Positions 25,060 to 54,238 of a stretch of 55,847 bases of DNA are shown one piece after another; the stretch's first letter is position 1; every line of letters starts with the position of its first letter. The notes below the pieces were generated by a model that worked only from the letters and a program-made list of their open reading frames with translations, ran no database searches and was not told the origin of the DNA. The stretch lies in assembly GCA_028702495.1 (NCBI GenBank), contig JAQVOS010000003.1, positions 1-55,847 on the forward strand, given 5' to 3'. A program made the position numbers and the translations under genes. Source of the stretch: Bacilli bacterium. GTDB taxonomy: Bacteria > Bacillota_I > Bacilli_A > ML615J-28 > CAG-698.

Positions 25060-25087
25060 TTGAATAAGTAAAATAAATGGGTATAAT
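25060..25087 (+). promoter_or_regulatory. Promoter directly upstream of the fluoride riboswitch
   Basis: TTGAAT-16 nt-TATAAT; predicted start site coincides with the aptamer 5' end. Confidence 0.55.
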
Positions 25088-25093
25088 ATATGA

Positions 25094-25154
25094 ATGGAAA
25101 TGATGTTCTTCCATAAGATTTCTTAGAACCGCACTTAAAGCTAATGACATCTAC
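25094..25154 (+). ncRNA. Fluoride (crcB) riboswitch aptamer
   Basis: ATGGAA-ATGATGTTC-TTCCAT P1; AACCGC...GCTAATGAC; pseudoknot GATGT/ACATC ending in CTAC. Confidence 0.85.
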
Positions 25155-25201
25155 AATCACTGGACATTTTTAACCAGCATTTGTAGTTGCATTGGCTTTT
25201 T
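25140..25201 (+). terminator. Riboswitch expression-platform terminator overlapping the aptamer 3' end
   Basis: gctaatg..ctacaa pairs with ttgtag..cattggc, followed by TTTTT. Confidence 0.7.
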
Positions 25202-35746: not shown

Positions 35747-37003
35747 ATGAATATTCATTATGAACTCAGAGGAGGACATTGGAATTTCAAAGATGAAGTC
35801 AAGATGTCATTCTATTATGATTTATATGAGTTTGTGAAAAGAGAACATCCCGAAGCTGTGAGTGGTATCACTTTCGATGAACTCGTTATTTCTGAACCTT
35901 ACATTATTGGCAATACTTTGGGTAAATTTTACCTAAAAGAAGTAGTGGGTGGAACGATTGAAGCTCAACCTACGACTCATTTCATTGGCTATTGCCATCA
36001 TGAAAAGAAGTATCTTGAACTCATTCCTCATCTTATCACTTTCTTTGCCTTATGGCGCGAGATTGAAGGATGTAGTGAAGCTAATGCAACGGATTTTTTT
36101 GCTTCCTCATGGGCGTCTCTTGTCGATACCGCTAAGTTTTTTAAATATACAACCGTAGAAGAACTAAAAGTTAGCCCTGAAGCGCCTTCTGTCCAAGACG
36201 CTCGGATTCTAGAAAGCATTCAAAATTGTCCAGAACAATACCCTGCTCCAACTAGTATCGCACTTCATCAAGAAGTGAAGATTCCAAGTCCCAGAAAAAC
36301 AGGATTTAAATTTTTGGGATGGTATAAAGAACCCCAGTGTCAACAAGAAAAAGTGACCTCATTAGTGGGAACATCGGTAGACGCAACTCTATATGCAAAA
36401 TGGGGGAGTTATACTTTATTCCATGCCAATGATGGGTATCTTACATTTGAAGACATTTATGATGATTTTATCAAAGACTTCAATACTCTTCTTCCAAATC
36501 AAATCTCAAAGAATAAAGAACGTATGGGAGAACATGGTTGGGTAAGTGATTTCTGTAAAGCCTCAAGTGGGGTTCTCAACCGTTTCTTTCACAACCCCGT
36601 TTTTTACAAGAAGTGGCAATGGCTCATTACTTATGTTTCATCCCTCTATCAGAGTACTCCTGAGCTTGCTCACGACTTTGATTTTATTGACGGAGCGTTT
36701 GTGAATGAAGAACATGTTAGGTGGGAACTAAACTCTCTCTTTGTTAGTCGCTATCATCTTGTTTATCCAAAAACCAAAGATTATAGCGGTGCTGGAATCA
36801 AAGAACGTCTTGCTGATTCAACAAACTCATTTCTCATTCGAGTGGATTATGTCATCGGTGAAGCAGTTCAGTTTCCTAAAGTATCAAAACCAGGGGAAAA
36901 ATTTATGGGTTGGTATTCTCATCCAGTGGATGGAACAAAAATAAAAACCATCCATGATGATACTTACGCTGCAAAAACCATCTACGCAAGATGGCAATCA
37001 TAA
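35747..37003 (+). CDS. Protein with two InlB B-repeat (Flg_new)-like modules and no evident signal peptide
   Basis: IPSPRKTGFKFLGWY..ATLYAKW and FPKVSKPGEKFMGWY..TIYARW. Confidence 0.65.
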   Translation: MNIHYELRGGHWNFKDEVKMSFYYDLYEFVKREHPEAVSGITFDELVISEPYIIGNTLGKFYLKEVVGGTIEAQPTTHFIGYCHHEKKYLELIPHLITFFALWREIEGCSEANATDFFASSWASLVDTAKFFKYTTVEELKVSPEAPSVQDARILESIQNCPEQYPAPTSIALHQEVKIPSPRKTGFKFLGWYKEPQCQQEKVTSLVGTSVDATLYAKWGSYTLFHANDGYLTFEDIYDDFIKDFNTLLPNQISKNKERMGEHGWVSDFCKASSGVLNRFFHNPVFYKKWQWLITYVSSLYQSTPELAHDFDFIDGAFVNEEHVRWELNSLFVSRYHLVYPKTKDYSGAGIKERLADSTNSFLIRVDYVIGEAVQFPKVSKPGEKFMGWYSHPVDGTKIKTIHDDTYAAKTIYARWQS

Positions 37004-37009
37004 AAAAAC

Positions 37010-37051
37010 AGTCGCATCAAAGGGATAACTCCCCAAGATGTGACTTTTTTT
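37010..37051 (+). terminator. Intrinsic terminator
   Basis: agtcgcatc...gatgtgact followed by a T-run. Confidence 0.6.
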
Positions 37052-37075
37052 CTTTGGGATAAGTTCAAAAAATAC

Positions 37076-37104
37076 TTGCATTTTTCATTGCTTTGTAGTA
37101 AAAT
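37076..37104 (+). promoter_or_regulatory. Promoter of the tRNA pair
   Basis: TTGCAT-17 nt-TAAAAT. Confidence 0.6.
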
Positions 37105-37124
37105 GATAAGGCAATTAAGAGTAT

Positions 37125-37209
37125 GGTGGGGTAGCGAAGTGGCTAAACGCGGTGGACTGTAAATCCACTCACTCAGTGTTCGGTGGTTCGAATCCACTCC
37201 CCACCACCA
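37125..37209 (+). tRNA. tRNA-Tyr (GTA)
   Basis: GGTGGGG/CCCCACC acceptor stem, anticodon arm gtgga-ctGTAaa-tccac, long variable arm, GGTTCGAATCC, encoded CCA. Confidence 0.95.
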
Positions 37210-37215
37210 TTTTCT

Positions 37216-37289
37216 AGGGCCATAGCCAAGCGGTAAGGCAAAGGACTTTGACTCCTTCATCTCTGGTTCAAATCCAGATGGCCCTGCCA
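37216..37289 (+). tRNA. tRNA-Gln (TTG)
   Basis: AGGGCCA/TGGCCCT acceptor stem, aagga-ctTTGac-tcctt anticodon arm, encoded CCA. Confidence 0.95.
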
Positions 37290-37376
37290 TTTTTAAAAAA
37301 ACTTGATAATGATACAAACATTAGTTTGTGCTATTATCAAGCTTTTTATTTGTATTCGTTTTAGAGATATTATTAT

Positions 37377-38999: not shown

Positions 39000-39104
39000 A
39001 AAAGTTTCTCACAACTATCGTTTTATCCATTGACTTTCTACAAGAACCTACGAAGTACCTAAAAATGTTTAATCGAAGAATAATGATAAATTATAAACAA
39101 AGAG

Positions 39105-39136
39105 AACCACTTTCGTATTAATGTGAGTGGTTTTTT
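39105..39136 (+). terminator. Terminator after the ArsR module
   Basis: aaccact...agtggtt followed by a T-run. Confidence 0.6.
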
Positions 39137-39232: not shown

Positions 39233-39261
39233 TTTACAAACGTTTTCAATTGTGATATAAT
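39233..39261 (+). promoter_or_regulatory. Promoter of precursor-1 operon
   Basis: TTTACA-17 nt-TATAAT with extended -10 (TGa); spacer contains cre-like AAACGTTTTCA. Confidence 0.65.
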
Positions 39262-39299
39262 TATTATAGCACATTTTTTTATTCAAAGGAGGTATAAAT

Positions 39300-39419
39300 A
39301 TGAATGAAAAAAAAGTTTACGAAATTCCAAAGGTTGAAATTGTAATGTTTAAAAATGATGAAATCATTACATCTAGTGGTGAAATGGATTTTAGCGAATT
39401 TGATGAAGAAGGAGAATGA
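39300..39419 (+). CDS. Unannotated 39-aa RiPP-precursor-like peptide P1: MNEKKVYEIPKVEIVMFKNDEIITSSGEMDFSEFDEEGE
   Basis: Translated by hand; strong RBS AAAGGAGGT, own promoter, YxxP leader motif, near a PqqD/rSAM cassette. Confidence 0.8.
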   Translation: MNEKKVYEIPKVEIVMFKNDEIITSSGEMDFSEFDEEGE

Positions 39420-39424
39420 AAAAC

Positions 39425-41902
39425 ATGAAAATGAGCAAAATCGTATTAAAAGCAACATTTTTATTAGTATCCATTGTTGCATTATTTTGCGTAGGCACTC
39501 GAATCTTTGTTAATGCTGCCCAAACCATTAATATGACCAATGGTGCACAAATTCGAACAACAGGGGAACGGCAAGGACTACGCTTTACAACGACAGTAGG
39601 GGAAGCTTTCGCTGAAGGATCAGAACATGGTTATTACCTTGCAAAAGGTGAACATGACATTGCTGACATGATAGACGCTATAGAGGCCTCAGCATCAACA
39701 ATTGATGGTAATAAATTAGTTAAGAAAGTGTTTGAAGATAGTGACCTTACTTTTAGTTTGGTTATTTATAATATTCCACAAAGTGCCTATAAACAAGACA
39801 TTACTGCTCTTGCTTACATCAAAGAGGGAGAAGTCTTTACATTTCCAGAAATTGCTGTAACAAGAAATATTGCTGAAGTAGCAGTAGCAGCATATTCATC
39901 TTATGAGGACGATGTTCCTGCCATTATTGCAAGTGCTGCAACTCAACAAGTAAATTATAATTTTAATGGTGGTGCATTTGTTGCTGAAAAAGAATTTACT
40001 ATTACAAGATATAATGCTGATACGACAGGTGCACATGTCAAAATTAGTAATGCAGCATCGGGTCAATACAGTATGTATTATCGTGTTTTGTATTTAGAAG
40101 AAACAAGTAATCCAAATGTTTTTGAAATCGTAAAATATACTAATGCTACTACTGTTGATACTTCTGGAGCATATGACTTATATATTGGAGCACATGATAC
40201 AGCCGTTGACCATACTGGTTACTTGACGGTTTTGTCATTAATGGCACCATCATCAATAGGTAAATATATTAGTCTAAGTTCAATTCCTACCGTAGCTGGA
40301 ACTGTTTCAGTAAAAGCAAAAGTATTCTCATCAAGTGAATTTACATATGCTTGCGAAAATGCAGTTCAAAATTATATCGGAGCAACCACTCCTAAAAACG
40401 TCCAAAAAGATTATTATGATTTTGTTGGATGGTATGATAACGCAGAATTCACGGGAGACGCTGTTACAGCCATTGCAGCTGGTAATAAAGGCTCTGCAAT
40501 GAATCTTTATGCTAAATTTACGCCTACTATCTACACAATTAATTATGAACTGGACAGTGGTAGTTGCTCTGATGAGGCGCGTGCAACAAGTTATACCTAT
40601 GTAAGTTCTGCTATTGCACTTCCATTGAGTGGAACCATGAGTAGGGATGGTTATGATTTTGTTGAATGGAATACAAAAGCAGATGGAACTGGGGAAACTA
40701 TAACCAGTATTCCAACTGGATCTCATGCTAATATCACAGTATATGCTATTTGGGCGAGCCAAGTTCCTACGGTAGTTGATTTGTCAAGTGAAGATGCTGC
40801 GATCATTAATGCTATCAATCCAACAAAATTTGTTAATACTTTATTTACAGCAGGTCGTTTCACAATTGGTGAAAATACTTATAAAGTAGGTGAAGGAGAA
40901 TTATTTGCAACGATAGCTTCAGCATTATCTGCAGCATCTACTAATGATGTTATTTATGTATTTGCTGGAACTTATTCGGATGTCGCCAATATTGCTGTTA
41001 ATAATCTGACATTAGTAGGGCCTGGTGCAAATAAAACTTTAGTTCATACTGATACTTATTCTGTAAATGTTGTTACTGAAGCATTGATTACTAAAGAGCT
41101 AATTATTGATAGTGGTGTATCTAATACTACTATTAAAGGCTTTTCAATGACAAATCAAATTACCATTTCTGGAAATGCGACTGTCAATATTTCTAATATC
41201 ATTTTTGGTGATATGACGGGTTTTGATACAGGATTTGATGGATCAATTAGAATTAAAGCAGCATCAAGCAATATTACGATTGATAGGGTATATTTCACTA
41301 GTAAATGTGCAAATCGTGGTGTTCATGTTAATGCTTTAACAACAAACTTCACATTAACAAATTGTGTTGTTTTAGATTCTGTAAGTGATCTTGTCGATTT
41401 CTGTAGATTTGGTCAAAGCAATACTTTATGTGCTAAAGGGACAATTATTTTTTCTAATAACTACATCCAAAAATGTAGTCAATCTGGCTTTATGGATAGA
41501 GTACCTAGTACTGCAAGTTATATATTTATCCACAATACATTTGATACTGTTCCAGCAGCTATATATATGAGAGCAAATGATAGTATAGGAGCTGCATCAT
41601 ATGAAGTTAAATATAATACATTTAATAAATGCGGAACTACTACACTTGATTGGGATGATGTTGCATTAACCACGGGTGCAAGTACAATTGTTAACTTTAA
41701 CTATAATATAATTACAAATAGTTATGATATGAGTGGTTGTTACAATATTAAAGTTAGAAATGACAGTGGAACAATCAATTGTGCAAATAACTATGTTGAT
41801 ACTGCATCACAACCTACTGACAATTTAAATGCTACTGGATTTACATTATTAGATAATGCTGAAGCAGTTGCTACTGCTTATGCTGCATATTTAGCTGGTT
41901 GA
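39425..41902 (+). CDS. Secreted surface protein, N-terminal part (GAQIR..GLRF domain, InlB B-repeats, right-handed beta-helix); ends at an in-frame TGA
   Basis: Signal peptide; YDFVGWYDN/DGYDFVEWN repeats; ATIASALSAAS.NDVIYVFAGTY. Confidence 0.75.
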   Translation: MKMSKIVLKATFLLVSIVALFCVGTRIFVNAAQTINMTNGAQIRTTGERQGLRFTTTVGEAFAEGSEHGYYLAKGEHDIADMIDAIEASASTIDGNKLVKKVFEDSDLTFSLVIYNIPQSAYKQDITALAYIKEGEVFTFPEIAVTRNIAEVAVAAYSSYEDDVPAIIASAATQQVNYNFNGGAFVAEKEFTITRYNADTTGAHVKISNAASGQYSMYYRVLYLEETSNPNVFEIVKYTNATTVDTSGAYDLYIGAHDTAVDHTGYLTVLSLMAPSSIGKYISLSSIPTVAGTVSVKAKVFSSSEFTYACENAVQNYIGATTPKNVQKDYYDFVGWYDNAEFTGDAVTAIAAGNKGSAMNLYAKFTPTIYTINYELDSGSCSDEARATSYTYVSSAIALPLSGTMSRDGYDFVEWNTKADGTGETITSIPTGSHANITVYAIWASQVPTVVDLSSEDAAIINAINPTKFVNTLFTAGRFTIGENTYKVGEGELFATIASALSAASTNDVIYVFAGTYSDVANIAVNNLTLVGPGANKTLVHTDTYSVNVVTEALITKELIIDSGVSNTTIKGFSMTNQITISGNATVNISNIIFGDMTGFDTGFDGSIRIKAASSNITIDRVYFTSKCANRGVHVNALTTNFTLTNCVVLDSVSDLVDFCRFGQSNTLCAKGTIIFSNNYIQKCSQSGFMDRVPSTASYIFIHNTFDTVPAAIYMRANDSIGAASYEVKYNTFNKCGTTTLDWDDVALTTGASTIVNFNYNIITNSYDMSGCYNIKVRNDSGTINCANNYVDTASQPTDNLNATGFTLLDNAEAVATAYAAYLAG

Positions 41903-44230
41903 ACTACCAGTGATAGAATTAATCATTCTATTGATGAATTAGATGATGATTTTAGTTCTATCACGGTAATCTCAAGTGATTTATCATTACCCACTGAAAA
42001 TACAACGTATCAAACAAGCATTTCATGGAATTCAAGTCATACACATATTGTGAGTAATACAGGGGTTTTTACAAAACCTTATCACGATACAGCCATTACA
42101 TTAACAGCGACCATATCATATGGGGAAGATAGCACGACCAAAGATTATACTTTTAATGTTGAAAGTGATTTTAAAGATTTGTCACAAGGAATCATTGCTG
42201 AATACTTGTATACTAGCATATCCAGTACAAGTGACTACACGTTTGAACAAGCCAACATATTGTTTGTTGCTTTTGGAGCCGCTAGTGCTACAGGAACGAT
42301 TAGCAATGCTTCCTCCATCGGATCAACCATTACTACGGATGTTGTGACTAAAGCCCATAACAATGGAACTCGTGTATTATTGTCTATTAATGGTGCTTCT
42401 AATTTAAGTGCGATTGCAGCTGATGCCACTTTAAGAACAACATTTGCTAACAACATTGTAAGTTTTATCAATACATATGGTATTGATGGAATCGATATTG
42501 ATTGGGAATTCCCTTCTAGTGCAGAAGCCACCAATTTCACATTGTTGATGAAAGAAATCTACGAAAAAGTAAAAGCAAATAATCCCTATCATTTAGTTAC
42601 AGCTGCTACTGGCATTGATACATATGTTCGATATGATTTAGAAAATTCAGTACAGTACTTAGATTATGTCAATATTATGACCTATGATATGCAAAGTTCT
42701 ACAACAGCAACGAATCATTCAGCACTTTATTATAAGAGTGGACATTGCTATAAAGCTATCAGTAATGCTTACACCTATTATGTAACCAATTTAGGATTAA
42801 ACGCCAACAAATTAATATTAGGAATTCCTTTCTATGGTAAAACATTTACGAATACGAATGGATTAGGAACAAGTGCTACATATTCAGGTTCAATAACATA
42901 TTCTTTAATTGTCTCTACTTATTTATCTAATGCAAATTATACCGAATATTGGGATAGTGATTGTCAAGTGCCTTATTTATATAGTGCTGTAGATAGAACT
43001 TTTATAACTTTTGATAATCCCACATCGATTTCATTAAAGATTCAGTATGCAGCTAGCAAAGGATTTGCAGGAATCATGTCTTGGCAAGATGGTCAAGATA
43101 GTAATGATATCTTATTTAGTGCTATGGTTGAGGGTATGAATGATAAAAGGATATCATTTAGTGCCAATATTGGCTTGTTAGGCCTACTTATTCAAGGAAA
43201 CAAATCGACCGTTTTACACAAAGATGTGAATTTTGGTGGATCAATAACCAATGAAGTATATGGTTCAGTAAATCTATATTCAACAAATAGTATCAGTATC
43301 AATACAAGTAAAAAGATGGCTGATGGCGATTTAGGCAGCGATAAAACTTATGGACTCATGGATTCATTAGAGTTTATTACAATTCATGATACTGGTAATA
43401 CATCCACAACTTCTAGCGCTTTAGCAAATACGAATTATATGCTTGATACTCCTAATGTGTCATGGCATTATACAGTAGGTGATAGTTCAATCTATCAAAA
43501 CATGAGTGAGGCATATACTGCTTACCATGCTGGTAGTGGGGCAAGAGTCTTTGCTTTACAAGATACAGGCATTGATGCTTCATACTATGGGAATAACACA
43601 CCGATCATAACATTTGATAATAATGGATATTATGCCATTAATGGTATTTCTACAACTCTTCGTCCTTATAGTGATGTGAGTGGAACAACTAAAGATAGTA
43701 CTAAATATACCACTTCACAAATAACCGAGTTTGGTATTTACTGGGCAATTGGTGCAAATGGTCACTATTATTTAAATAAAACATACTATAATAGCACTTA
43801 TGCTAAAGTGTGTAATTTTGGTGGAAATACAAACTCTATTGGGATTGAAACAACTGTCAATAACGGATCTGATATTTATCAAACATGGCAAAATACCGCC
43901 AAATTAGTAGCAGATATTCTAGTGAGAAATAATCTAACCCCAAATGAAGTTTTATCTCATAATGCATTTAGTGGTAAAGACTGTCCTCATACATTGTTGA
44001 ATGCGAATCTATTTGATGAATTCATAAATATGGTTATTATGGAGTACAATATTAGAAAGTACTATTCGGACTATACCATCGTTTTTGAAAGTATGTCTCC
44101 TGATGTTATTGATAATGATGGAAGAGTAATTGTTCCAATTACTAATGACACGACTGTATATTATAAAATTACCATTAGTAAAGAGGACATTAGTGAAAGT
44201 GTAATCCTTTCTTCCATAATTCCAGCATAA
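41903..44230 (+). CDS. Ig-like, GH18 chitinase-like, Amidase_2 and Ig-like region; same frame as the upstream ORF, with no signal peptide or evident RBS
   Basis: SDLSLPT..SISWNSS..TLTATI; DGIDIDWEFP; IHDT, SWHYTV, AYHAG, SIGIE, SH...KDCP; frame open from 41903. Confidence 0.8.
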   Translation, partial: TTSDRINHSIDELDDDFSSITVISSDLSLPTENTTYQTSISWNSSHTHIVSNTGVFTKPYHDTAITLTATISYGEDSTTKDYTFNVESDFKDLSQGIIAEYLYTSISSTSDYTFEQANILFVAFGAASATGTISNASSIGSTITTDVVTKAHNNGTRVLLSINGASNLSAIAADATLRTTFANNIVSFINTYGIDGIDIDWEFPSSAEATNFTLLMKEIYEKVKANNPYHLVTAATGIDTYVRYDLENSVQYLDYVNIMTYDMQSSTTATNHSALYYKSGHCYKAISNAYTYYVTNLGLNANKLILGIPFYGKTFTNTNGLGTSATYSGSITYSLIVSTYLSNANYTEYWDSDCQVPYLYSAVDRTFITFDNPTSISLKIQYAASKGFAGIMSWQDGQDSNDILFSAMVEGMNDKRISFSANIGLLGLLIQGNKSTVLHKDVNFGGSITNEVYGSVNLYSTNSISINTSKKMADGDLGSDKTYGLMDSLEFITIHDTGNTSTTSSALANTNYMLDTPNVSWHYTVGDSSIYQNMSEAYTAYHAGSGARVFALQDTGIDASYYGNNTPIITFDNNGYYAINGISTTLRPYSDVSGTTKDSTKYTTSQITEFGIYWAIGANGHYYLNKTYYNSTYAKVCNFGGNTNSIGIETTVNNGSDIYQTWQNTAKLVADILVRNNLTPNEVLSHNAFSGKDCPHTLLNANLFDEFINMVIMEYNIRKYYSDYTIVFESMSPDVIDNDGRVIVPITNDTTVYYKITISKEDISESVILSSIIPA

Positions 44231-44278: not shown

Positions 44279-44308
44279 AAGGAGGGACTTAAAGTTCCTC
44301 CTCTTTTT
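44279..44308 (+). terminator. Intrinsic terminator
   Basis: aggagggact-taa-agttcctcct followed by a T-run. Confidence 0.7.
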
Positions 44309-44389: not shown

Positions 44390-45094
44390 ATGTATTATAA
44401 GATTGCTGATCTCATTGTGGATATGAATCCTCAATATGCCCCCTTAATCAATCAAATTGCCCCTTATAAAATAGATGATGTTCCCGAAGTTGTTCATTGC
44501 GTGATTTCTCAAGGCAATAAAACCATTACGGAACAAAACAAAAAATATCCCCGATTATCTAGGGGTGAAGTTGAGTACTTATTATATGGAGCTTATTTTT
44601 ATGATGCTTTATTGAAATATCAAGGAATCCTTCTTCATTCATCTTGCGTTATCTATCAAGGAGTAGCTTACCTCTTTTCTGCGAATTCAGGTGTGGGTAA
44701 GTCAACTCATACAAGTATTTGGTGCCGCATTTTTCCAGAAGCTTTTATTCTAAATGATGATAAACCTGCCCTCAGATTTGATGAGGATCGATTATATGCT
44801 TATGGAACTCCTTTTTCCGGGAAAACCAACCAAAATGTGAATGCGCGATATCCTGTTGCTGGAATTGCATTTATTCATCGGAGTGACATCAATAAAAGTG
44901 AACCTATTTCCACTAAGCAAGCTCTCGTTCGCTTTATGCAGCAAACATTAAAGCCCCATGATGAAAGTCGTTTTGATCTCATCGTTCAAACACTCGAATG
45001 TATCTTAAAAACTACAAGGTTTTATTCACTCGGCGTCAATATGTCAGATGAAGCCGCACTCATGGCCTATGATACGATGAGGCAAGATCGCTAA
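44390..45094 (+). CDS. HprK-related P-loop kinase-like protein A
   Basis: LLHSS, FSANSGVGKST, ILNDDKP, YGTPFSGK. Confidence 0.75.
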   Translation: MYYKIADLIVDMNPQYAPLINQIAPYKIDDVPEVVHCVISQGNKTITEQNKKYPRLSRGEVEYLLYGAYFYDALLKYQGILLHSSCVIYQGVAYLFSANSGVGKSTHTSIWCRIFPEAFILNDDKPALRFDEDRLYAYGTPFSGKTNQNVNARYPVAGIAFIHRSDINKSEPISTKQALVRFMQQTLKPHDESRFDLIVQTLECILKTTRFYSLGVNMSDEAALMAYDTMRQDR

Positions 45095-45189: not shown

Positions 45190-45615
45190 ATGAAAGAATT
45201 AACCTATCAAGAGATTATTGATCAATATGGTGGCTTTATTTATTATCCTGTTGGAACGAGCATGCTTCCTCTCATTGTGGAGGGAGTTCACTCCGTCAAA
45301 CTTGAAAAAATTAATCGCCCCATTCGTAAGTATGATATCGTCTTATATCATCGAGACAATGACCAATATGTTCTTCATCGTGTGGTTCGAGTTCATGAAG
45401 ATTTTTATGATATGAAGGGTGACAATCAATTTATGATTGAAAAGAATATTCGCAAAGATCAAGTGATTGCGATTATGAGTGGCTTATATTGTCAAGAACA
45501 AATCGTACCCCTCCAAGGTTTTCGATATCAAATTTCCATACGAATGAATCTTTGGTTTCGCCATTTTCGTCGACTCTTTCAAAAAATTAAGCATTTACTT
45601 AAACGCAAAAAATAA
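45190..45615 (+). CDS. S24/S26-family peptidase A
   Basis: GTSMLP, DIVLY, YVLHRV, KGDN; basic amphipathic C-terminus. Confidence 0.85.
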   Translation: MKELTYQEIIDQYGGFIYYPVGTSMLPLIVEGVHSVKLEKINRPIRKYDIVLYHRDNDQYVLHRVVRVHEDFYDMKGDNQFMIEKNIRKDQVIAIMSGLYCQEQIVPLQGFRYQISIRMNLWFRHFRRLFQKIKHLLKRKK

Positions 45616-45624
45616 GAGGGCTTT

Positions 45625-46347
45625 ATGAAAAAAGTATCAATTCTTTTACTTCTAATCACAATGTTTTTATTTAGTGGCTGTAAAGGTACGCCTCTAACAT
45701 CGCTCGAAGTTTCTTTTGAGTCCATTCGGTTGATAAATGAAGGATTAGAGGTTACTTTAAAACCTAATAGCGAGATACTTAAACAAGATAAACTCCATAA
45801 AATTGGGATAGCGATTGGTTGTTCTAAAGACTCCTCTTTATCAATCGAAGAAGCAATCAATGTGATTACGATTGATTTTGAAAAAGAGACTGATCAAGAA
45901 GATTATATTTTTCTTTTTGAAAACATTGATGAGAGTTTTTATAACGTAAGTCTTACAATTCAACCTTATCTCGTACTTAATAATGAAGAAATAGAATATC
46001 TAGCCAATCATTCAACGTGTATATTGTATCAACTAGCAAAACAAGAAGAACATACATATTCAGAGTGGGTTGTAAGTGTTGTAGAGGAGAAAGTGATTAG
46101 TGAGATTCGCTTAACTGCTGATTATCAAAATTATACAGTTCAGTCCCTCAGTGAAGGGTATCAAGCCATCCTTGAAACCGATTATAACTACATCACTATT
46201 ACCATCACCATTCTAGATGATTATTTACTTCGCACCACCTTTCAGTTAATTATCAATGATACAGTTTTAGTCCCCAAGAACATTCAACCCGATTATCGAA
46301 CCATTACTTATATGATTGATGATCCGAATTGGACACAACCTTACTAA
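45625..46347 (+). CDS. Lipoprotein of unknown function
   Basis: Lipobox FSGC; C-terminus IDDPNWTQPY. Confidence 0.7.
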   Translation: MKKVSILLLLITMFLFSGCKGTPLTSLEVSFESIRLINEGLEVTLKPNSEILKQDKLHKIGIAIGCSKDSSLSIEEAINVITIDFEKETDQEDYIFLFENIDESFYNVSLTIQPYLVLNNEEIEYLANHSTCILYQLAKQEEHTYSEWVVSVVEEKVISEIRLTADYQNYTVQSLSEGYQAILETDYNYITITITILDDYLLRTTFQLIINDTVLVPKNIQPDYRTITYMIDDPNWTQPY

Positions 46348-46377: not shown

Positions 46378-47550
46378 ATGAATGAAACGAGGAATTACTT
46401 GATGAAAAATAAAGACATAATTACCATTCTATATCATATTATTCACCCGGAAGTTTCTTGTTCGAACCCATTTACTTATAAAGAGGTTGAGGGCTTATTC
46501 AAGTTTCACAGTTTAGAGCCTTTCCTTTTTCTTGCTTACAAACAAGGACTGCTTGTAACTTCTCCTGAAGAAGAAACAAAAATTACAAAACAATATCAAA
46601 TCGCGATTTACAAAATGTCAGCTCAAGAAGAGGAATTAAAACTGATTAAAGAAACGCTTACCTCAAATCAAATTCTCTTTTTACCGATTAAAGGTTCTTG
46701 GGTTCGTGCTTGTTACCCTTCGCCTGAACTTAGAACCATGGCTGATCTCGACATTTTAGTTCCAAAAAATAAACTAAAAGTGGTCAAAGCTTGCATGCTA
46801 TCTTTAGGGTATACCAGTGAGCATGAAGGTGGAAACCATGATGTGTATCACAAACGTCCCTTTATGAATGTTGAAATGCATCGCAATATGGTCGATGAAT
46901 CCTATACTTTATCGAAATATTATCGTAACATTTGGGATCGACTGAATCCCAATGAAGGCGCCTACGAGTGTGCCCTTACGCCCGAAGATCATTACTTATT
47001 CCTCATTGCTCATAGTGCAAAGCACTATGGAAATGGAGGAACTGGGGTTCGCTCCGTTCTTGATATCTATTTTTATTGGAAAAAATTTCCTACCATGAAT
47101 AAAGAATATATTCTTGAAGAACTCCATAAACTTGAACTCGTTCAATATGAGGCAAGTCTATACGCTCTCTCTCAAAGCTGGTTTGAGGGTGTAATAGAAT
47201 CTGAAGAAATCACCATGATGGGAGAATATCTCCTTTCAAGTGGTGTTTACGGAACGACAACACATGCCGTTGCATCCGCGCTTAGTTCTATGGATGAAGC
47301 AACATCTCTTTCTTCGCGTAAATGGAAATATCTATGGCATCGGGCTTTTCCTCCCTTTAAAACGATGAAGCAACTCTATCCATCCTTGAAGGTATTCTTT
47401 GTATTTCTTCCTTTTTATTACCTCCATCGACTACTCAAGGGATTATTCACAGGAAAAGTGGCTCAACAAACCCAACAACTAAAACACATCAATGAACAAC
47501 AAGTACAAAAGAATCAACAAATAAAAGACAAAACAGGAGTACAAAAATGA
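46378..47550 (+). CDS. Nucleotidyltransferase family protein (NTP_transf_5-like)
   Basis: LPIKG..YPSPELRTMADLDILV, VEMH, H.AKH...G.GVRSVLD. Confidence 0.85.
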   Translation: MNETRNYLMKNKDIITILYHIIHPEVSCSNPFTYKEVEGLFKFHSLEPFLFLAYKQGLLVTSPEEETKITKQYQIAIYKMSAQEEELKLIKETLTSNQILFLPIKGSWVRACYPSPELRTMADLDILVPKNKLKVVKACMLSLGYTSEHEGGNHDVYHKRPFMNVEMHRNMVDESYTLSKYYRNIWDRLNPNEGAYECALTPEDHYLFLIAHSAKHYGNGGTGVRSVLDIYFYWKKFPTMNKEYILEELHKLELVQYEASLYALSQSWFEGVIESEEITMMGEYLLSSGVYGTTTHAVASALSSMDEATSLSSRKWKYLWHRAFPPFKTMKQLYPSLKVFFVFLPFYYLHRLLKGLFTGKVAQQTQQLKHINEQQVQKNQQIKDKTGVQK

Positions 47551-47810
47551 AAGTAAAAAAAGGGTTCATGCTACGTGAAGTAGCTCAAAATTTTGTTGTG
47601 GTTCCCGTAGGAAAAGCAGCGATTGATTTTAATGGAATTATCACTCTAAATGACACTGGCGCTTTCTTATGGAGTCAGTTGCTAGATGACATTGAATTTG
47701 CTGAATTGAAAGCAAGACTCAAGAAGGAATATCAAGTGGATGATAAAACTGCAAGCATTGATATCAAAAATTTTCTTGCTGAACTAGATCAAGCTAAATT
47801 AATAGAGTAA
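47547..47810 (+). CDS. PqqD-family RiPP recognition element
   Basis: 87 aa; FMLREVA..VVVP..FNGIITLNDTGAFLW..L..EY.VD. Confidence 0.9.
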   Translation: MKVKKGFMLREVAQNFVVVPVGKAAIDFNGIITLNDTGAFLWSQLLDDIEFAELKARLKKEYQVDDKTASIDIKNFLAELDQAKLIE

Positions 47811-47836
47811 AATCCATTATTACAATGGGAGGCCCC

Positions 47837-48844
47837 ATGAACTATATTACGCTTCGAAATCAAATGATTCAACAAGCAGCCAAAACCAAAACCCCGATTA
47901 TGGGTGAGTTTGAACTGACTCCCTCATGTAACCTAGCTTGTAAAATGTGCTATGTTCGTGAGACACAATCCCAAAAAGAATTAACAACGAGTCAGTGGAA
48001 AGAACTTTTTCTAGAGGCAAAGAAAGAAGGCCTCCTTTTTTGCTTGCTTACAGGGGGGGAAATCTTTCTTCGTAAAGATTTCCAAGAGCTTTATGAATAT
48101 ATATATGATTTAGGTATTCGTGTATCTTTATACACCAATGGAACATTAATTACGGATGAAGTGGTTTCGTTTTTATCTTTAAGAAAACCCGACTTTATTG
48201 GAATCACTTTGTATGGCGCGAATCCCGAGCAATATAAAGAAATCACAGGTTCATCCCTCGCGTTTCATCAAGTAGAAGCAGGAATTAAGCGACTTCAAGA
48301 GGCAAATATTCCTCTATTGGTTCGAACCATAGCCATCCAATCAATTTATCAAAATCTTGATGAAGTCATTCAATATTTTAAAGATCATCATTTTTCGGTA
48401 TCCTATAGTTTATATGTCGGACCTCGGCGTAGTTGCCCTGGAAGTGAAAGTGTTGATCGCCTTACTCCCTCTGAACTTGTTGATTATAAGAATCAATTTC
48501 TAGAAGCTTTTGGAGTATCAAAATCGATTGAAGTGAATGATTGCTTTAGTAGCTTTCGATGCGTTGCGGGAAAAAGTTCTTACTTTGTTCGTTGGGATGG
48601 AACAATCATGCCTTGTGCCATGCTCGAAGTACCTCGATTTGATGCTCTTCTTTCCTTTAAAAAAGCATGGGGCGATTTGGGTGAAGCGATTCAGAAAGTC
48701 CCGCTGTGTGATGAGTACGCCACTTGTTCGCTTCGATCTACCTGCATTCAATGCCCAGCAAGTCGGTATCTTGAAGGTGGATTCTCAAAATGTAGTTCTT
48801 ATTTAAAAGAAATAGCACGGGAACTTAAGGAGAAAGAGTCATGA
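47837..48844 (+). CDS. Radical SAM/SPASM-domain protein
   Basis: ELTPSCNLACKMCY, LTGGE, YTNGT; C-terminal C-x17-C and C-x5-C-x5-C-x2-C-x12-C; ATG 47837 follows GGAGG. Confidence 0.9.
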   Translation: MNYITLRNQMIQQAAKTKTPIMGEFELTPSCNLACKMCYVRETQSQKELTTSQWKELFLEAKKEGLLFCLLTGGEIFLRKDFQELYEYIYDLGIRVSLYTNGTLITDEVVSFLSLRKPDFIGITLYGANPEQYKEITGSSLAFHQVEAGIKRLQEANIPLLVRTIAIQSIYQNLDEVIQYFKDHHFSVSYSLYVGPRRSCPGSESVDRLTPSELVDYKNQFLEAFGVSKSIEVNDCFSSFRCVAGKSSYFVRWDGTIMPCAMLEVPRFDALLSFKKAWGDLGEAIQKVPLCDEYATCSLRSTCIQCPASRYLEGGFSKCSSYLKEIARELKEKES

Positions 48845-49686
48845 AAGCCTATAAAATTGCCTCCATTCTTCTAGGCTTTTCTCATCCCGATAACCCTTTG
48901 ATTGATGATCGATTGGTGCATTATGAAACACAAGAATCTCCTCAGTATGAAATGAGTGTGCTATATCACCCTTGTATTACGATACAAGAAGAAGTGACAA
49001 TGACTCATGAACAAGTTTGTACATATGAGGATTCAGATAAAACCATTACTTATACATACAATAAAAGTCATCAATTACTCTCGAAAGTAACCATTGCAAA
49101 AGATATGAAGCGAATTGTGATTGAATTATCAGAAGTATTGGGATCGAAACTTCCAATGATGGAATATGTTACAACGGGGCTTTATTTCTTTGAGATTGCC
49201 CTTCATGCGGGATATTTACCACTTCATGCATCCGCCATTATTCACGAAAGCAAAGCGGTTCTATTCTCTGCTCCATCAGGAGTAGGTAAATCTACTCAAG
49301 CAAATTTATGGAAAACGATGAATCCCAAAATTGAAATCTTAAATGATGATAAACCATTAATCTTATGTAAAGATGAAATACGCGTATTTGGAACCCCATG
49401 GTGTGGAAAAACATTTCAGAATAAGAATACCTCCGTTCCTCTAAAAGCCATTACTTTCATTGAACAAGGATTAGAAAATGTGATTACACCTCTCTCAAAT
49501 GAAGAAAAAATGATTCATTTATTTAAGAATACACATCGTAGCCAAATCTCAACTAATCTTGAAACGACCATAACCAGTATGCAAACCCTTATTGAAAAAG
49601 GAAATCTTTTCTTCTTTACTTGTACAAAAACACAAGAAGCATATGACACTTTATATCAATACTTATACGGTGAAGTCTATGATTGA
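48841..49686 (+). CDS. HprK-related P-loop kinase-like protein B
   Basis: LHASA, FSAPSGVGKST, ILNDDKP, FGTPWCGK. Confidence 0.75.
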   Translation: MKAYKIASILLGFSHPDNPLIDDRLVHYETQESPQYEMSVLYHPCITIQEEVTMTHEQVCTYEDSDKTITYTYNKSHQLLSKVTIAKDMKRIVIELSEVLGSKLPMMEYVTTGLYFFEIALHAGYLPLHASAIIHESKAVLFSAPSGVGKSTQANLWKTMNPKIEILNDDKPLILCKDEIRVFGTPWCGKTFQNKNTSVPLKAITFIEQGLENVITPLSNEEKMIHLFKNTHRSQISTNLETTITSMQTLIEKGNLFFFTCTKTQEAYDTLYQYLYGEVYD

Positions 49687-50119
49687 TAAGAAAATATCAA
49701 TTGAAGTAATGGGACCAATTATTGAAGAAACGATAAAACAAGATGGAACCGTTAAACTTCAAATATCTGGAAATAGCATGCGTCCCTTTTATATTCACCA
49801 AGAAACAATTGTTTGTTTGGAAAAGGTTCATTCGCCTCTTAAACAATTCGATGTTGTCTTTTATCGCAATGAAAACGAGCAGTATCTTCTTCATCGCATC
49901 ATCAATATTAAAGGAAGTACTCTTGTGATTTGTGGAGATGCTTTATCGCAAAAAGAATATATCGATGAATCTTTAATCATAGCTCGTGTACAGTATCATG
50001 AGCGAAATGGAAAAGTCACACCCTCTTCATCAAAGCGATATCAAATGAAAGTGAAATGGTGGAATAAACTCAGTCCACTACGAAAATACCTCATTCGGTT
50101 CTTTCCTTATAAAAAATAA
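49679..50119 (+). CDS. S24/S26-family peptidase B
   Basis: GNSMRP, DVVFY, YLLHRI, CGDA; basic amphipathic C-terminus. Confidence 0.85.
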   Translation: MIDKKISIEVMGPIIEETIKQDGTVKLQISGNSMRPFYIHQETIVCLEKVHSPLKQFDVVFYRNENEQYLLHRIINIKGSTLVICGDALSQKEYIDESLIIARVQYHERNGKVTPSSSKRYQMKVKWWNKLSPLRKYLIRFFPYKK

Positions 50120-50122
50120 CAT

Positions 50123-50157
50123 AAGAAGCCATTGCTTGATTCAATGTGCTTCTTTTT
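50123..50157 (+). terminator. Terminator closing the cassette
   Basis: aagaagc-cattg...caatg-t-gcttctt followed by a T-run. Confidence 0.7.
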
Positions 50158-50194: not shown

Positions 50195-50224
50195 TTGATT
50201 TTATGATATCGTTCGTGATAAAAT
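50195..50224 (+). promoter_or_regulatory. Promoter of precursor-2 operon
   Basis: TTGATT-18 nt-TAAAAT with extended -10 (TGa). Confidence 0.6.
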
Positions 50225-50272: not shown

Positions 50273-50401
50273 ATGATTCAAGAAGAAAAAAAAGAGTATC
50301 AAAAACCGGTCATTCAAGTGGTGAAATTTACCCTTGAAGAAGGGATTGCGGAAAGCACGATGAGTGGAGAAGGGCCAAATTTAATTTGTTTGGATGCATA
50401 G
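50273..50401 (+). CDS. Unannotated 42-aa RiPP-precursor-like peptide P2: MIQEEKKEYQKPVIQVVKFTLEEGIAESTMSGEGPNLICLDA
   Basis: Translated by hand; RBS AGAAAGGT; aligns to P1; stop codon overlaps the RBS of the next gene. Confidence 0.8.
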   Translation: MIQEEKKEYQKPVIQVVKFTLEEGIAESTMSGEGPNLICLDA

Positions 50402-50411: not shown

Positions 50412-53003
50412 ATGAAAAAATTAAAAAGTATTTTATTCGTCTTTATCGCTTTAATGCCTTTTATCATGGTTGGAACCATTGTAAAAGGAGCACCGACTAC
50501 AGTAAATGTTAGTGTCACTAGTTACTTTGGTGAAGATAACGAAGTCACAAATAATGCCAATGGTAAAGCATATGGCACAAAATTTTCCTTTAATGCAAAT
50601 CTGCAAGCCAATGATCATTCATTTGCATTTTGGATTGTTAATGGAGTCGTTCGTAAAGATATTACTACCGTTGACCACCCATTCTTTGCCACTGAAAATT
50701 TAAATCTAAAAGCTATTTTTGCACCAACAGATAAATATGCTGTTGTTTTCATGGACTCTAACGGGAAACTTTTAAAAGTTGAGTACGTCAGTCCTAATGG
50801 AGATGCAACAGACATCACAGAAGGATTACCATCAAAACCAGGATATCAAGTTTCAACAACTGCTAAATGGAGTGGTTCACTCACTGGAATTACTGGTAAT
50901 ACGGTACTAGTATTACAATATGAAAAAATAAATGACGCTACTTATGCTGTCACTGTTAACAATGGTACAGGAAGTGACACATATGATTATAATGAACTTA
51001 TCACGGTGGTTGCGAATGCTCCCACTGAAGGACAATATTTTAGTCATTGGGAATCTAGTGGAAAAGTTGTGAGTCGTCAAGCTACTTATCAATTAACAGT
51101 TTTAAAAGCAATGACTTTAACAGCTGTTTATACTAGTGAACAACCAACAACTGTTGCTTCAATATTCTTAGAAAATAAGTTGGATTTGAAAGAAGGATAT
51201 TTTAGTTATCAAGGACACTTTGAATTACCAGAAGGATATGTAGTCGTTGAAGTGGGAGTTCTTTATTCAAGCACCCTAGACACTTTCGATGTTGACACAA
51301 CTTCAGTATCTAGAAAAGTCATTGGCAAATACAATGCTGAAAATGGAGAATTCTTAGTTAGTGTAGAAAAAAACAACACTGGACATCTTCGTTCTTATTT
51401 AATTTACTCAAATGTATCAACCGGACAAATAAGCACAGTCTATAGTGATATTGTTACTACGAACCCGAATGACTTATTCATTAGTGAATATGGAGAAGGT
51501 GGAAGTAATAATAAGTGGATTGAGATATATAATCCAACAAATGGAACCATTGATTTATCAAATTATTCATTAAAGCTTTATACAAATGGTTCAGGAACAG
51601 CCTCTAATCCTTTAAGTTTATCTGGTACACTTGCATCTAAATCGACTTATGTGGTTTACAACAGCGCAGCCGTTACCGACATCTCAAGTAAAGGTCAAAT
51701 TGCTGCTTCAGTAACGTATTTCAATGGTGACGATGCAGTGACATTAGAGAAAAATGGTGAAATTGTTGATATTATTGGGATGGTTGGAACCGACCCAGGC
51801 ACTGCCTGGACATGGGATGATGGATCAACATTGGATATGACTTTAGTGAGGAAATTTGGTATTTATTATCCAAATAGTACATGGACAACCTCTGAATGGG
51901 ATGCATATCCTCAAGACACATTTGCTTACATTGGAAGTCATCAAACGACAGAAATCATGCCGATCACTATTACAGTTTCTGGCGATACACGTGTTTTGGA
52001 AACTAAAACAATTCAGCTATCTTCATCTGTGTCGCCTTCTGGTGCAGTACCTACCGTTGATTGGTCATCAAGTAATGAATCAATCGCTACTGTAAGCTCA
52101 ACAGGTGAAGTGACTGGGGTTGCTGCAGGAACTGTCACAATTACTGCCACCTCAGTTAAAGATTCAAATGTATATGATGAACACATTATTATAGTCACTG
52201 AGCCCAATTATTTTGATATTAATGTAGGTTCAAATGATGATAGTTATGGAACCGTCTCAACAAATAATCCAAGCGTAATCGAAGGTGGTAGTGTTAACAT
52301 TACTCTTACACCTGCAACTGGGTATCGTTTAGTTTCACACACAATAAACAGTGAAACCACAACATATGAAAATCAAACATCTACATTAACAATAACAATA
52401 AATGATATTACATCTAACCAAACAGTGAGTGGTCTATTTGAAGAAATACCCACAGGAACCATGACGGAGCAATACGTTTTCAATTTTGGAACAGACAATA
52501 AAACAGGATATGCTCTCGGTACTGTTACTTTCGACAATAATGATGGCATATCATATACTCTTAATAAAAATAGAGCTCAAATTAATACCTTAAGTGGATA
52601 TACTCCAGCACTAATATTAGCGCCGATTAAAGGGTACTTAGTCGCATATGTGGAAATTGACCTGACAAGTGTTTCATATAATGTTGAAGAAATTAGTTTT
52701 AAATATACGGCATGGTCCTCAAGTGCAATTACAAATATAAAAGACACAACAAAAGCAACAAACCCGGTCTTCGTATTGCAATACTATAATACAAATACTA
52801 GCGTATGGGAAACATTGACTAGCAAAACATTAATATCAAATCTTGTTAATACCGTTACAACATCATATCAAGAAATCGTATATACTGTTTCAGGAAAAGG
52901 AAAATATAGACTTTTGGTACAAATGGATAGTGCTACTAGTGCAACCAATACAAATTATGCAATGGTTGTTGATGACTTCTCGATCCGTGCAATGTCGGAA
53001 TAA
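50412..53003 (+). CDS. Secreted multidomain protein, N-terminal part (divergent InlB B-repeats, lamin-tail domain, Big_2 Ig domain)
   Basis: Signal peptide; DLFISEYGEGGSNNKWIEIYNPT (LTD); VDWSSSNESIATVSSTGEVTGVAAGTVTITATS (Big_2). Confidence 0.8.
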   Translation: MKKLKSILFVFIALMPFIMVGTIVKGAPTTVNVSVTSYFGEDNEVTNNANGKAYGTKFSFNANLQANDHSFAFWIVNGVVRKDITTVDHPFFATENLNLKAIFAPTDKYAVVFMDSNGKLLKVEYVSPNGDATDITEGLPSKPGYQVSTTAKWSGSLTGITGNTVLVLQYEKINDATYAVTVNNGTGSDTYDYNELITVVANAPTEGQYFSHWESSGKVVSRQATYQLTVLKAMTLTAVYTSEQPTTVASIFLENKLDLKEGYFSYQGHFELPEGYVVVEVGVLYSSTLDTFDVDTTSVSRKVIGKYNAENGEFLVSVEKNNTGHLRSYLIYSNVSTGQISTVYSDIVTTNPNDLFISEYGEGGSNNKWIEIYNPTNGTIDLSNYSLKLYTNGSGTASNPLSLSGTLASKSTYVVYNSAAVTDISSKGQIAASVTYFNGDDAVTLEKNGEIVDIIGMVGTDPGTAWTWDDGSTLDMTLVRKFGIYYPNSTWTTSEWDAYPQDTFAYIGSHQTTEIMPITITVSGDTRVLETKTIQLSSSVSPSGAVPTVDWSSSNESIATVSSTGEVTGVAAGTVTITATSVKDSNVYDEHIIIVTEPNYFDINVGSNDDSYGTVSTNNPSVIEGGSVNITLTPATGYRLVSHTINSETTTYENQTSTLTITINDITSNQTVSGLFEEIPTGTMTEQYVFNFGTDNKTGYALGTVTFDNNDGISYTLNKNRAQINTLSGYTPALILAPIKGYLVAYVEIDLTSVSYNVEEISFKYTAWSSSAITNIKDTTKATNPVFVLQYYNTNTSVWETLTSKTLISNLVNTVTTSYQEIVYTVSGKGKYRLLVQMDSATSATNTNYAMVVDDFSIRAMSE

Positions 53004-54180: not shown

Positions 54181-54238
54181 ATTTTTGTTCTTGAAGAATT
54201 ATGAAAAGATAGTATAATAATAACTAATGGAGGTTAAC

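Follow-up and report, generated by a model that had tools for sequence, protein, structure and literature searches.

A 39-codon gene that lies below the usual ORF cut-off, which we call P1 (39300..39419, +), is a real and conserved gene in the 55,847-nt stretch of Bacilli bacterium DNA analysed here (contig JAQVOS010000003.1 of assembly GCA_028702495.1; hereafter the window). It encodes a leader-plus-core type peptide, with an inferred boundary, of a large family that is not curated in Pfam or NCBIfam and that is found next to kinase-like, peptidase-like and radical SAM (rSAM) maturation-type genes. Four orthologues from other assemblies keep the frame, and each lies 5-17 nt upstream of an orthologue of the 828-aa secreted Flg_new protein encoded directly behind P1. 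The closest described system is that of the linear polyphosphorylated peptides (LPP; Popov et al., Nat Commun 2026, PMC13381572). The P1 locus differs from it in that an rSAM enzyme is present, no exporter is present, the core is Cys-free and acidic, and the peptide is conserved in a pair with a giant secreted protein. The chemistry of P1 is inferred by analogy throughout.

The features of the locus are as follows:
39101..39136 (+), terminator-like hairpin (-15.5 kcal/mol, z -4.7) followed by a U run, ending the upstream Thioredoxin_3 gene and marking the 5' boundary of the P1 transcription unit
39233..39261 (+), sigma-70-type promoter TTTACA-17-TGaTATAAT, whose -35 block TTTACAAACGTTTTCA (39233-39248) is conserved in orthologous loci and is cre-like (one mismatch to WTGNAANCGNWNNCW)
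39285..39293 (+), Shine-Dalgarno AAAGGAGGT of P1, conserved in orthologues
39300..39419 (+), P1, a 39-aa precursor-type peptide with an inferred leader of about residues 1-22/23 (K4K5-x-Y7-x-x-P10-x-V12-E13...E21) and an inferred core of about T24-E39 with conserved T-x-S-G-E-(M/I/V)-(D/S)-(F/Y)-x-(D/E)-(L/F)
39409..39414 (+), AAGGAG RBS of the downstream gene, inside the last codons of P1; the same arrangement occurs in Acholeplasma laidlawii
39425..41902 (+), secreted 825/828-aa protein with a signal peptide and Listeria-Bacteroides (Flg_new) repeats, the conserved partner gene of P1-type peptides
41903..44230 (+), GH18 plus N-acetylmuramoyl-L-alanine amidase ORF, in frame with the previous ORF and separated from it by one conserved TGA
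44280..44302 (+), terminator (-14.6 kcal/mol) ending the P1 transcription unit
44390..45094 (+), ScmC1, a P-loop protein (SGVGKST) with a predicted HprK/P fold; this paralogue type travels with P1-type peptides
45190..45615 (+), SpI-1, signal-peptidase-I-like (SpI-like; S26, archaeal/SipW-type Ser-His) protein with no N-terminal TM segment, candidate leader peptidase
45625..46347 (+), lipoprotein (lipobox LFSGC) with no family; homologues lie next to the P0123 peptide (locus L008) and in the A. laidlawii locus
46378..47550 (+), NTP_transf_5 (PF14907) nucleotidyltransferase-like protein (NTase)
47547..47810 (+), discrete PqqD-family RRE
47825..48844 (+), rSAM/SPASM enzyme (CxxxCxxC plus seven C-terminal Cys)
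48841..49686 (+), ScmC2, the second HprK-like paralogue; this type travels with P2-type peptides
49679..50119 (+), SpI-2, the second SpI-like protein, likely start ATG 49679
50122..50154 (+), terminator-like hairpin (-13.8 kcal/mol, z -4.2) ending the enzyme operon
50273..50401 (+), P2, a second hidden precursor-type peptide (42 aa, MIQEEKKEYQKPVIQVVKFTLEEGIAESTMSGEGPNLICLDA) with one Cys, directly upstream of the 863-aa secreted protein
50412..53003 (+), secreted LTD/Big_2/Flg_new_2 protein, conserved partner of P2-type peptides, followed by an Endonuclease_1 protein (53063-54127) and a CBM_X2 protein (54227-55306)

The P1 gene and its signals

P1 runs from ATG 39300 to TGA 39417-39419 and translates to MNEKKVYEIPKVEIVMFKNDEIITSSGEMDFSEFDEEGE. 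Its Shine-Dalgarno AAAGGAGGT ends 6 nt before the ATG. The promoter matches 11 of 12 positions with an extended -10 (-35 at 39233-39238, a 17-nt spacer, -10 at 39256-39261) and is the best + strand hit in 38.7-45.3 kb. However, promoter-like hits in that region do not exceed those in shuffled sequence (42 against 38.6), so the promoter is credible only because its -35 block, TTTACAAACG(T/C)TTTCA, is conserved in three orthologous loci. We read the cre-like element, which is unique in the window, as a possible CcpA site.

The hairpins followed by U runs at 39101-39136, 44280-44302 and 50122-50154 divide the region into three transcription units: P1, the 828-aa protein and GH18/amidase; eight maturation-type genes; and P2, the 863-aa protein and a nuclease. 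The AAGGAG in the last codons of P1 is 1 nt from ATG 39416, which is too close, and 10 nt from ATG 39425, which is the start a gene caller chose on an identical contig. Close coupling of the two genes is therefore plausible, but the ATGA overlap is probably not the real start.

A sequence-only reading of this DNA had described the 39-aa ORF with a consensus RBS, a near-consensus promoter, the RBS of the downstream giant gene in its last codons, and a Ser-containing, acidic, Cys-free core after T-S, and this observation holds in our analysis. The core after T-S has 7 acidic residues of 14 and no Cys or basic residue. Of 742 small ORFs (20 aa or more) in the window, P1 is one of only three with a full AAGGAGG Shine-Dalgarno, and it is one of the two hits to an independent family profile, so chance is excluded.

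Conservation of P1

A word-indexed protein search with P1 (padded to 40 aa) found only P1 itself. In contrast, an exhaustive HMMER search of 1.8 billion representatives returned two relatives, which we call P0122 and P0123. A metagenome scan with the three-peptide alignment found no confirmed locus, but repeating the scan with the N-terminus of the 828-aa protein gave two genome loci, L089 and L090 (L numbers denote the fetched loci), the first of which holds a third relative at L089:4633-4734. The sequences are:
P1, MNEKKVYEIPKVEIVMFKNDEIITSSGEMDFSEFDEEGE
P0123, MNEKKQSYQKPIIEVVIFKNEEIITASGEIDYGDLE
P0122, MDEKKVYEIPQVEIILFESAEIMTASGEVSYDDLLG
L089, MKKDYQKPTIEVILFNDHEIMTVSGEVDFNDLE

These three, and the peptide of A. 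laidlawii (L091:7759-7890; MIKTAETKKRTYECPVIEVVKFEENVRTGSEGSANVSDWWFEG), are all intact, so the condition set beforehand for rejecting the gene, that orthologous loci lack an intact ORF, is not fulfilled. Pairwise dN/dS is 0.20-0.35 with dS 0.8-1.6. This rests on about 35 codons, but the direction is consistent. P0122, P0123 and the L089 peptide gene sit 11-17 nt upstream of an orthologue of the 828-aa protein. The last four residues of P1 (EEGE) correspond to the intergenic and RBS sequence of the orthologues, so this tail is lineage-specific read-through over the downstream RBS and is probably incidental.

The peptide family

Homologues of the window's rSAM protein were used to fetch 79 genome loci, in addition to contigs from the protein index. 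A small-ORF profile iterated over these loci gave 100 hits across 88 loci plus the window (79 of the loci from the rSAM scan), all on the rSAM strand and mostly within 1-2 kb of the rSAM gene. They comprise 96 distinct peptides in which Y and P of the Y-x-x-P leader are invariant (96/96). Counting from the Tyr, other frequent positions are K at -2, a hydrophobic residue at +5, L or F at +10, E at +13 and +14, I/L/M at +16, A at +17, and S or C at +19 (65/96).

As an independent test, we built a profile from the 81 Clostridia-type peptides outside the window's clade. Among the 742 small ORFs of the window it ranked P2 first (E 1e-8) and P1 second (E 1.6e-4), while the third best ORF had E 2.8. 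The first 28 residues of P1 are homologous to the leaders of this family. Pfam and NCBIfam scans of P1, P2 and five other family members found no family, and the only hits were sub-threshold matches to leader models: residues 6-16 of P2 to the paeninodin model (E 0.13) and one family leader to the StsA sactipeptide model (E 0.029). A profile of the family gave no hit against PDB sequences, and a search for fusions of the leader to large proteins found none. Loci from Clostridia MAGs with a ScmC1-type gene (L094-L098) held no recognisable precursor.

Among 84 sources with an rSAM match (83 fetched loci plus the window), the co-occurring genes are HprK-like ScmC in 78, PqqD in 72, S26/SpI-like in 46 and PF14907 in 38.

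Maturation-type genes of the window

The two ScmC paralogues have an invariant P-loop. ScmC2 alone gave no hit against PDB sequences and the ScmC profile gave only weak HprK and PEPCK hits, so the fold was examined by structure prediction. The AF2 model of ScmC1 (pLDDT 94.1) finds HprK/P 1jb1 (E 1.8e-5, probability 1.0) and PEP carboxykinases as its best PDB matches. The HprK-like label given in the sequence-only reading therefore holds, although kinase activity remains an inference.

The 87-aa PqqD protein (PF05402, E 5e-14) is a discrete RRE. Its best PDB sequence matches are PbaB1 (9x90) and LppB (9x8z), with weak E values of 0.03-0.06. It keeps the equivalents of LppB N33, Y60, D70 and F74 (N35, Y62, D72 and F76), the residues that hold the YxxP kink and the Tyr hydroxyl, so binding of a Tyr-type leader is inferred from sequence alone.

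The two SpI-like proteins (141-146 aa) have hits to sigpep_I_arch, SipW and sigpep_I_bact with E 1e-5 to 3e-7, all below the curated cut-offs, and SpI-2 has a weak Peptidase_S24 hit. Both have GxSM and HR motifs 39 residues apart (Ser in GTSMLP and His in LHRVV of SpI-1), the spacing of S29 and H68 in LppS, and neither protein has an N-terminal membrane anchor. The 390-aa transferase is PF14907 (E 1.1e-44).

The rSAM protein (PF04055, E 2e-23) has CxxxCxxC at C35/C39/C42. Its C-terminal C246, C264, C301, C307, C310 and C323 are invariant in 15 homologues, and the window protein has a seventh. It falls below the cut-off of every curated maturase family, its best hits, AhbD and ScmE, scoring about 91 bits against cut-offs of 400-500.

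Comparison with known systems

In the LPP clusters (lppA-K-B-S-D-N of Paenibacillus alginolyticus), the SpI-like peptidase LppS, the RRE LppB, the HprK-like kinase LppK, the NTP transferase LppN and an MsbA-like pump are encoded with precursors of 35-200 aa that carry the leader YxxPxVLxHQxIxFETxxS. That study showed experimentally that LppK polyphosphorylates Ser3 of the core, the S of the motif, which lies 18 residues after the leader Tyr, that LppS cleaves after T-1 and needs LppB to do so, and that Y-16 and P-13 are essential for binding (PMC13381572). The P1 locus shares with LPP a short precursor with an N-terminal YxxPxV leader and a conserved Glu and Ser at Tyr+14 and Tyr+18, a discrete PqqD-type RRE that keeps the Tyr-binding Asp and the Asn and Phe of the pocket, an HprK-like protein, a TM-less protein that resembles archaeal-type SpI by sub-threshold matches only, a PF14907-type NTP transferase, and the association with cell-surface or exopolymer loci. 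However, P1 matches only Y, P, V, E(+14) and S(+18), which is 5 of the 11 specified positions of the leader consensus; the RRE-binding part YxxPxV is present, whereas the middle block LxHQxIxF and T(-1) are absent. In addition, the paper and its supplements never mention an rSAM enzyme, the kinase-like proteins of the window are of the ScmC type and do not reach PF07475, the peptide heads an operon for a giant secreted hydrolase, and the host is a Mycoplasmatota-like lineage rather than a Bacillus or Paenibacillus. All window ORFs of 500 aa or more were identified and none is an ABC exporter.

Phosphorylated lasso peptides of the paeninodin/pseudomycoidin type also have a Y/WxxP leader read by a discrete B1 RRE, with an HprK-like kinase and a PF14907 transferase as tailoring enzymes acting on a Ser. 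In the window, no Asn-synthetase-like cyclase or transglutaminase-like B2 protease domain appears among the ORFs scanned, there is no C-terminal Ser, and the candidate leader peptidase is of the S26 type.

Sactipeptide, ranthipeptide and streptide/triceptide-type systems share with the window an rSAM with a full SPASM Cys set next to an RRE and short precursors, and the relatives in Clostridia have Cys-rich cores. P1 and its three closest orthologues have no Cys, while P2 has one, and the added kinase-like, NTase and S26 proteins are not typical of these classes.

The SynChlorMet cassette of TIGRFAMs/NCBIfam (ScmC, ScmE/F), which has no described product, also combines an HprK-like ScmC-type protein with rSAM/SPASM and PqqD-like genes, but the window proteins score far below the equivalog cut-offs (ScmC 24.4 and 45.3 bits against 125; ScmE 90.8 against 400). 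Literature searches on SynChlorMet, ScmC, and HPr kinase with SPASM or radical SAM found nothing relevant beyond the LPP paper.

QhpC/QhpD of quinohemoprotein amine dehydrogenase and the PqqA/MftA cofactor precursors involve an rSAM/SPASM-modified small peptide that ends up as a subunit or cofactor of a larger extracytoplasmic enzyme, which is a precedent for a functional link between a peptide and a neighbouring big protein. P1-type cores have Glu and Tyr/Phe three residues apart, but there is no sequence similarity, P1 has Phe where Tyr would be needed for quinone chemistry, and there is no dehydrogenase in the locus.

Pairing of peptides with secreted proteins

In the window's clade (Izemoplasmatales, Acholeplasmatales and 'Tenericutes' MAGs), every one of 13 peptide genes is followed by a gene for a 730-1273-aa protein with a signal peptide, with a gap of -25 to +17 nt. 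Peptide type and protein type co-vary: Cys-free P1-type peptides precede proteins that start ...MTDGAQIRTTGERQGLRF, while single-Cys P2-type peptides (SGDFGSxTxCGEEIY) precede LTD/Big_2/Flg_new_2 proteins, which are followed by Endonuclease_1. The ScmC paralogue type tracks the same split in every locus examined.

Acholeplasma laidlawii (CP126461.2) has a 43-aa family member 3 nt upstream of a 674-aa Flg_new protein. A ScmC1-type gene and GHL10 proteins follow, and an SpI-like gene lies 3 kb upstream, but there is no PqqD, NTase or rSAM within 10 kb. L089 has the P1/big-protein pair with no enzyme gene within 4.5 kb upstream and 4.4 kb downstream. Taken together, the peptide, giant protein and ScmC1 appear to form the conserved core for P1-type peptides, and the rSAM step may belong only to P2-type peptides.

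Strict adjacency of each peptide type to its own type of giant secreted hydrolase is unusual for RiPPs, and it suggests a biological role for this enzyme set, which the LPP authors state is unknown; the presence of the same module in A. laidlawii makes that role directly testable. The data also indicate that a gene invisible to ORF-length filters is the probable substrate of an eight-gene maturation cluster, define from 96 distinct sequences a precursor family that Pfam and NCBIfam do not model, and link the LPP chemistry to rSAM/SPASM enzymes and to a much wider taxonomic range (Clostridia, Izemoplasmatales and Acholeplasmatales). We consider the locus an LPP-like cassette that contains an rSAM enzyme and has a new genomic logic.

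Proposed maturation and alternative explanations

We believe, with somewhat better than even confidence, that P1 is a translated precursor peptide of the RiPP type. In this view its leader would be bound as an added beta strand by the discrete RRE, or in minimal systems perhaps be read directly by the enzymes, and the RRE would present it to the neighbouring enzymes. ScmC1 would phosphorylate the conserved Ser at Tyr+18/+19 (S25/S26), the PF14907 transferase may extend that phosphate, and SpI-1 would remove the leader around E21-I23, releasing a short acidic, aromatic-containing core (T-x-S-G-E-phi-D-F/Y-x-D/E-L/F). The rSAM/SPASM enzyme may add a cross-link, although this step is the least certain because P1 has no Cys, the usual donor for SPASM thioether enzymes. 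P1 would be co-transcribed and probably translationally coupled with the giant secreted Flg_new/GH18 enzyme, and most likely acts together with it. Our analysis establishes the ORF and its signals, its conservation under purifying selection, the leader homology, the gene co-occurrence and synteny, the HprK fold of the ScmC1 model and the retention of the YxxP-binding residues in the RRE, whereas every chemical step, including phosphorylation and leader cleavage, the cleavage site, leader binding, the export route and the functional link to the secreted enzyme are inferred, with no expression, peptide or mass-spectrometry evidence behind them. Several findings weigh against the model. P1 lies 5 kb from the enzymes in a separate transcription unit, the conserved Ser is one residue out of register in the orthologues (+19 rather than +18), no exporter gene is in the window, the sequence matches of SpI, ScmC and the RRE to curated models are all below family cut-offs, L089 has the pair without nearby enzyme genes, and the A. 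laidlawii locus suggests that the RRE and rSAM steps may not apply to P1-type peptides.

The interpretation offered in the sequence-only reading, that the Ser residues of P1 are candidate sites for the HprK-like kinases and the nucleotidyltransferase, is partly supported. P1 is a genuine precursor-like peptide, the transferase is PF14907, and by analogy with LPP the Ser pair at the proposed T-S boundary (S25/S26) is the likely phospho-site. However, Ser32 is not conserved in the orthologues, P1 heads its own transcription unit with the secreted protein rather than lying in the enzyme operon, and that reading considered neither the rSAM enzyme nor the conserved pairing of peptide and giant protein.

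A possible alternative, which we hold only tentatively and which refines rather than negates our model, is that P1 belongs to a linear, LPP-like sub-pathway in which ScmC1 and SpI-1, with or without the NTase, process it without rSAM chemistry, while the rSAM, ScmC2 and SpI-2 serve the Cys-containing P2, so that the window holds two fused modules. The A. laidlawii locus, the two ScmC and two SpI paralogues beside two peptide types, with paralogue type tracking peptide type, and the lack of Cys in P1-type cores agree with this. In Izemoplasmatales-type loci the order rSAM-ScmC2-PqqD-SpI-NTase-P2-big protein is self-contained, and in L098 a ScmC1-type gene sits in a K-N-B-S-ABC cassette without rSAM. 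On the other hand, L003 joins a ScmC1-type gene directly to NTase-PqqD-rSAM with a single peptide, L010 and L090 keep ScmC1-NTase-PqqD-rSAM contiguous, and Cys-free family members also sit next to rSAM genes in Clostridia, so a lack of Cys does not exclude rSAM action. A further reading that we consider doubtful, but that is not excluded, is that the matured P1-type and P2-type peptides are dedicated partners of the giant secreted hydrolases encoded immediately behind them, as a modified small subunit, a membrane or surface tether, or an activity switch. If so, a RiPP-type machinery (HprK-like kinase, SpI-like peptidase, with or without RRE, NTase and rSAM) has been recruited for the biogenesis of surface enzymes in wall-less Bacilli, the cultivable A. 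laidlawii among them.

It is unlikely that P1 works unmodified, as a small partner, chaperone or inhibitor of the secreted protein, with its leader-like N-terminus an evolutionary remnant. The tight conservation of the gene pair in 13 of 13 clade instances, the co-variation of the two types and the pair without nearby enzymes in L089 fit such a role, but the most conserved part of P1 is exactly the YxxP leader that maturation systems use, the ScmC1 type co-occurs in five of the six P1-type loci where flanks are available, and P1 has no signal peptide to follow a secreted partner. More improbable still is a regulatory upstream ORF whose translation, not its product, controls the giant gene. The downstream RBS does lie inside or just after the P1 stop codon in all orthologues, and the promoter carries a conserved cre-like element typical of sugar-regulated operons, yet dN/dS of 0.2-0.35 with saturated synonymous sites indicates selection on the amino-acid sequence, P1 is homologous to peptides that are not followed by large genes, and no attenuator-like alternative structures were seen. 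An untranslated chance ORF, suggested by the short length, the absence of a curated family and the word-indexed search that found only P1 itself, is effectively refuted by the four intact orthologues, the family profile, the conserved SD and promoter, and dN/dS below 1.

An in-frame TGA downstream of P1

The 828-aa ORF and the GH18/amidase ORF are in one frame, separated by a single TGA. The 49 codons after the TGA have no start codon and are conserved in four genomes, and a conserved hairpin starts 6 nt after the TGA. We considered a genetic code in which TGA is read as Trp and rejected it, because 12 of 50 genes end in TGA, housekeeping ORFs are intact, and TGG accounts for 1.1% of residues. 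The arrangement looks like programmed read-through, which remains a possibility on sequence evidence, and it may be why the sequence-only reading called the downstream gene giant. It does not affect the end of P1, because the orthologues stop with TAA at the equivalent place.

Additional features of the peptide loci

Window 50273-50401 (+): P2, a second hidden small gene (42 aa, one Cys)
Window 50195-50224: promoter-like site of P2
Window 41900-41964 (+): in-frame TGA between the 828-aa Flg_new ORF and the GH18/amidase ORF, with the sequence that follows it
Window 39233-39248 (+): -35 region of the P1 promoter
Window 45625-46347 (+): lipoprotein of no known family

We noted that P2 has its own promoter-like site and sits directly upstream of the 863-aa LTD/Big_2 secreted protein. 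P2 is the stronger member of the peptide family (E 1e-8), and it has orthologues in at least eight loci.

The in-frame TGA between the Flg_new and GH18/amidase ORFs is conserved in the window and in three of the loci fetched from other genomes (L009, L010, and L090). The 49 codons after it are also conserved and have no start codon, and a conserved hairpin of about 13 bp starts 6 nt after the TGA (-24 kcal/mol). We consider this to be a candidate for programmed read-through, which would give a protein of about 1600 aa. A general code in which TGA is read as Trp is excluded.

The -35 region of the P1 promoter, TTTACAAACG(T/C)TTTCA, is conserved in four genomes (the window and loci L009, L007, and L089) and is unique in the window. 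It differs at one position from the CcpA cre consensus WTGNAANCGNWNNCW, suggesting that the operon of P1 and the hydrolase may be under catabolite control. The lipoprotein lies inside the enzyme operon, and its homologues are found just upstream of the P0123 peptide, a P1 orthologue (locus L008, 1-504), and in the Acholeplasma laidlawii locus (L091, 13525-14748).

Related loci in other genomes

Acholeplasma laidlawii (CP126461.2; locus L091, 4318-14748) is a cultivable organism that carries a minimal module, made up of an SpI-like gene next to a GGDEF protein, the 43-aa peptide MIKTAETKKRTYECPVIEVVKFEENVRTGSEGSANVSDWWFEG, a 674-aa Flg_new protein, a ScmC1-type gene, and two GHL10 proteins. No rSAM, PqqD, or NTase gene lies within 10 kb. 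An Izimaplasma locus (L019) has rSAM-ScmC-PqqD-SpI-NTase followed by a Big869-type protein, but there is no peptide ORF in the 130-nt gap (13727-13858), and this is the one exception to the pairing of peptide and large protein genes.

In the Clostridia and other loci (L022-L088), we observed that many carry two or three precursors of distinct core types beside one or two rSAM genes. The types seen are Cys-rich cores of about 25 aa (GSICTGAC...), 80-aa peptides ending CYxxG...FNS, and Gly/His-rich peptides ending in Trp-rich motifs such as GWGWFFPW, none of which is in Pfam or NCBIfam. ScmC1-type genes, for which there are 1802 homologues at E<=1e-5, also occur in a ScmC-NTP_transf_5-PqqD-S24-like-ABC cassette without rSAM, which is LPP-like (locus L098, 10001-14064), and as ScmC-PqqD pairs next to DHFR or SLH proteins. 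No precursor was recognizable in these loci (L094-L098).

Genomic context of the window

Window 25087-25160 (+): fluoride riboswitch (37.8 bits, above the gathering score)
Window 25217-26437: Na_H_Exchanger-family gene downstream of the riboswitch
Window 37125-37289 (+): tRNA-Tyr(GTA) and tRNA-Gln(TTG)
Window 36982-37317, strand opposite to the tRNAs: 111-aa ORF, which is spurious

The context in positions 1-33000 of the window is chromosomal housekeeping. The domains found there fit fabD/G/F-like genes, a glycogen operon (GH77, GlgB, GlgC/D, GlgA, GlgP, and amylase), an LtaS-like sulfatase-family protein, and PP-loop (TilS-like), FtsH-like, class II tRNA synthetase, and Hsp33 proteins. The GC content is 37%, and the nearest genome by rSAM identity (65%) is 'Tenericutes bacterium ADurb.BinA124'.
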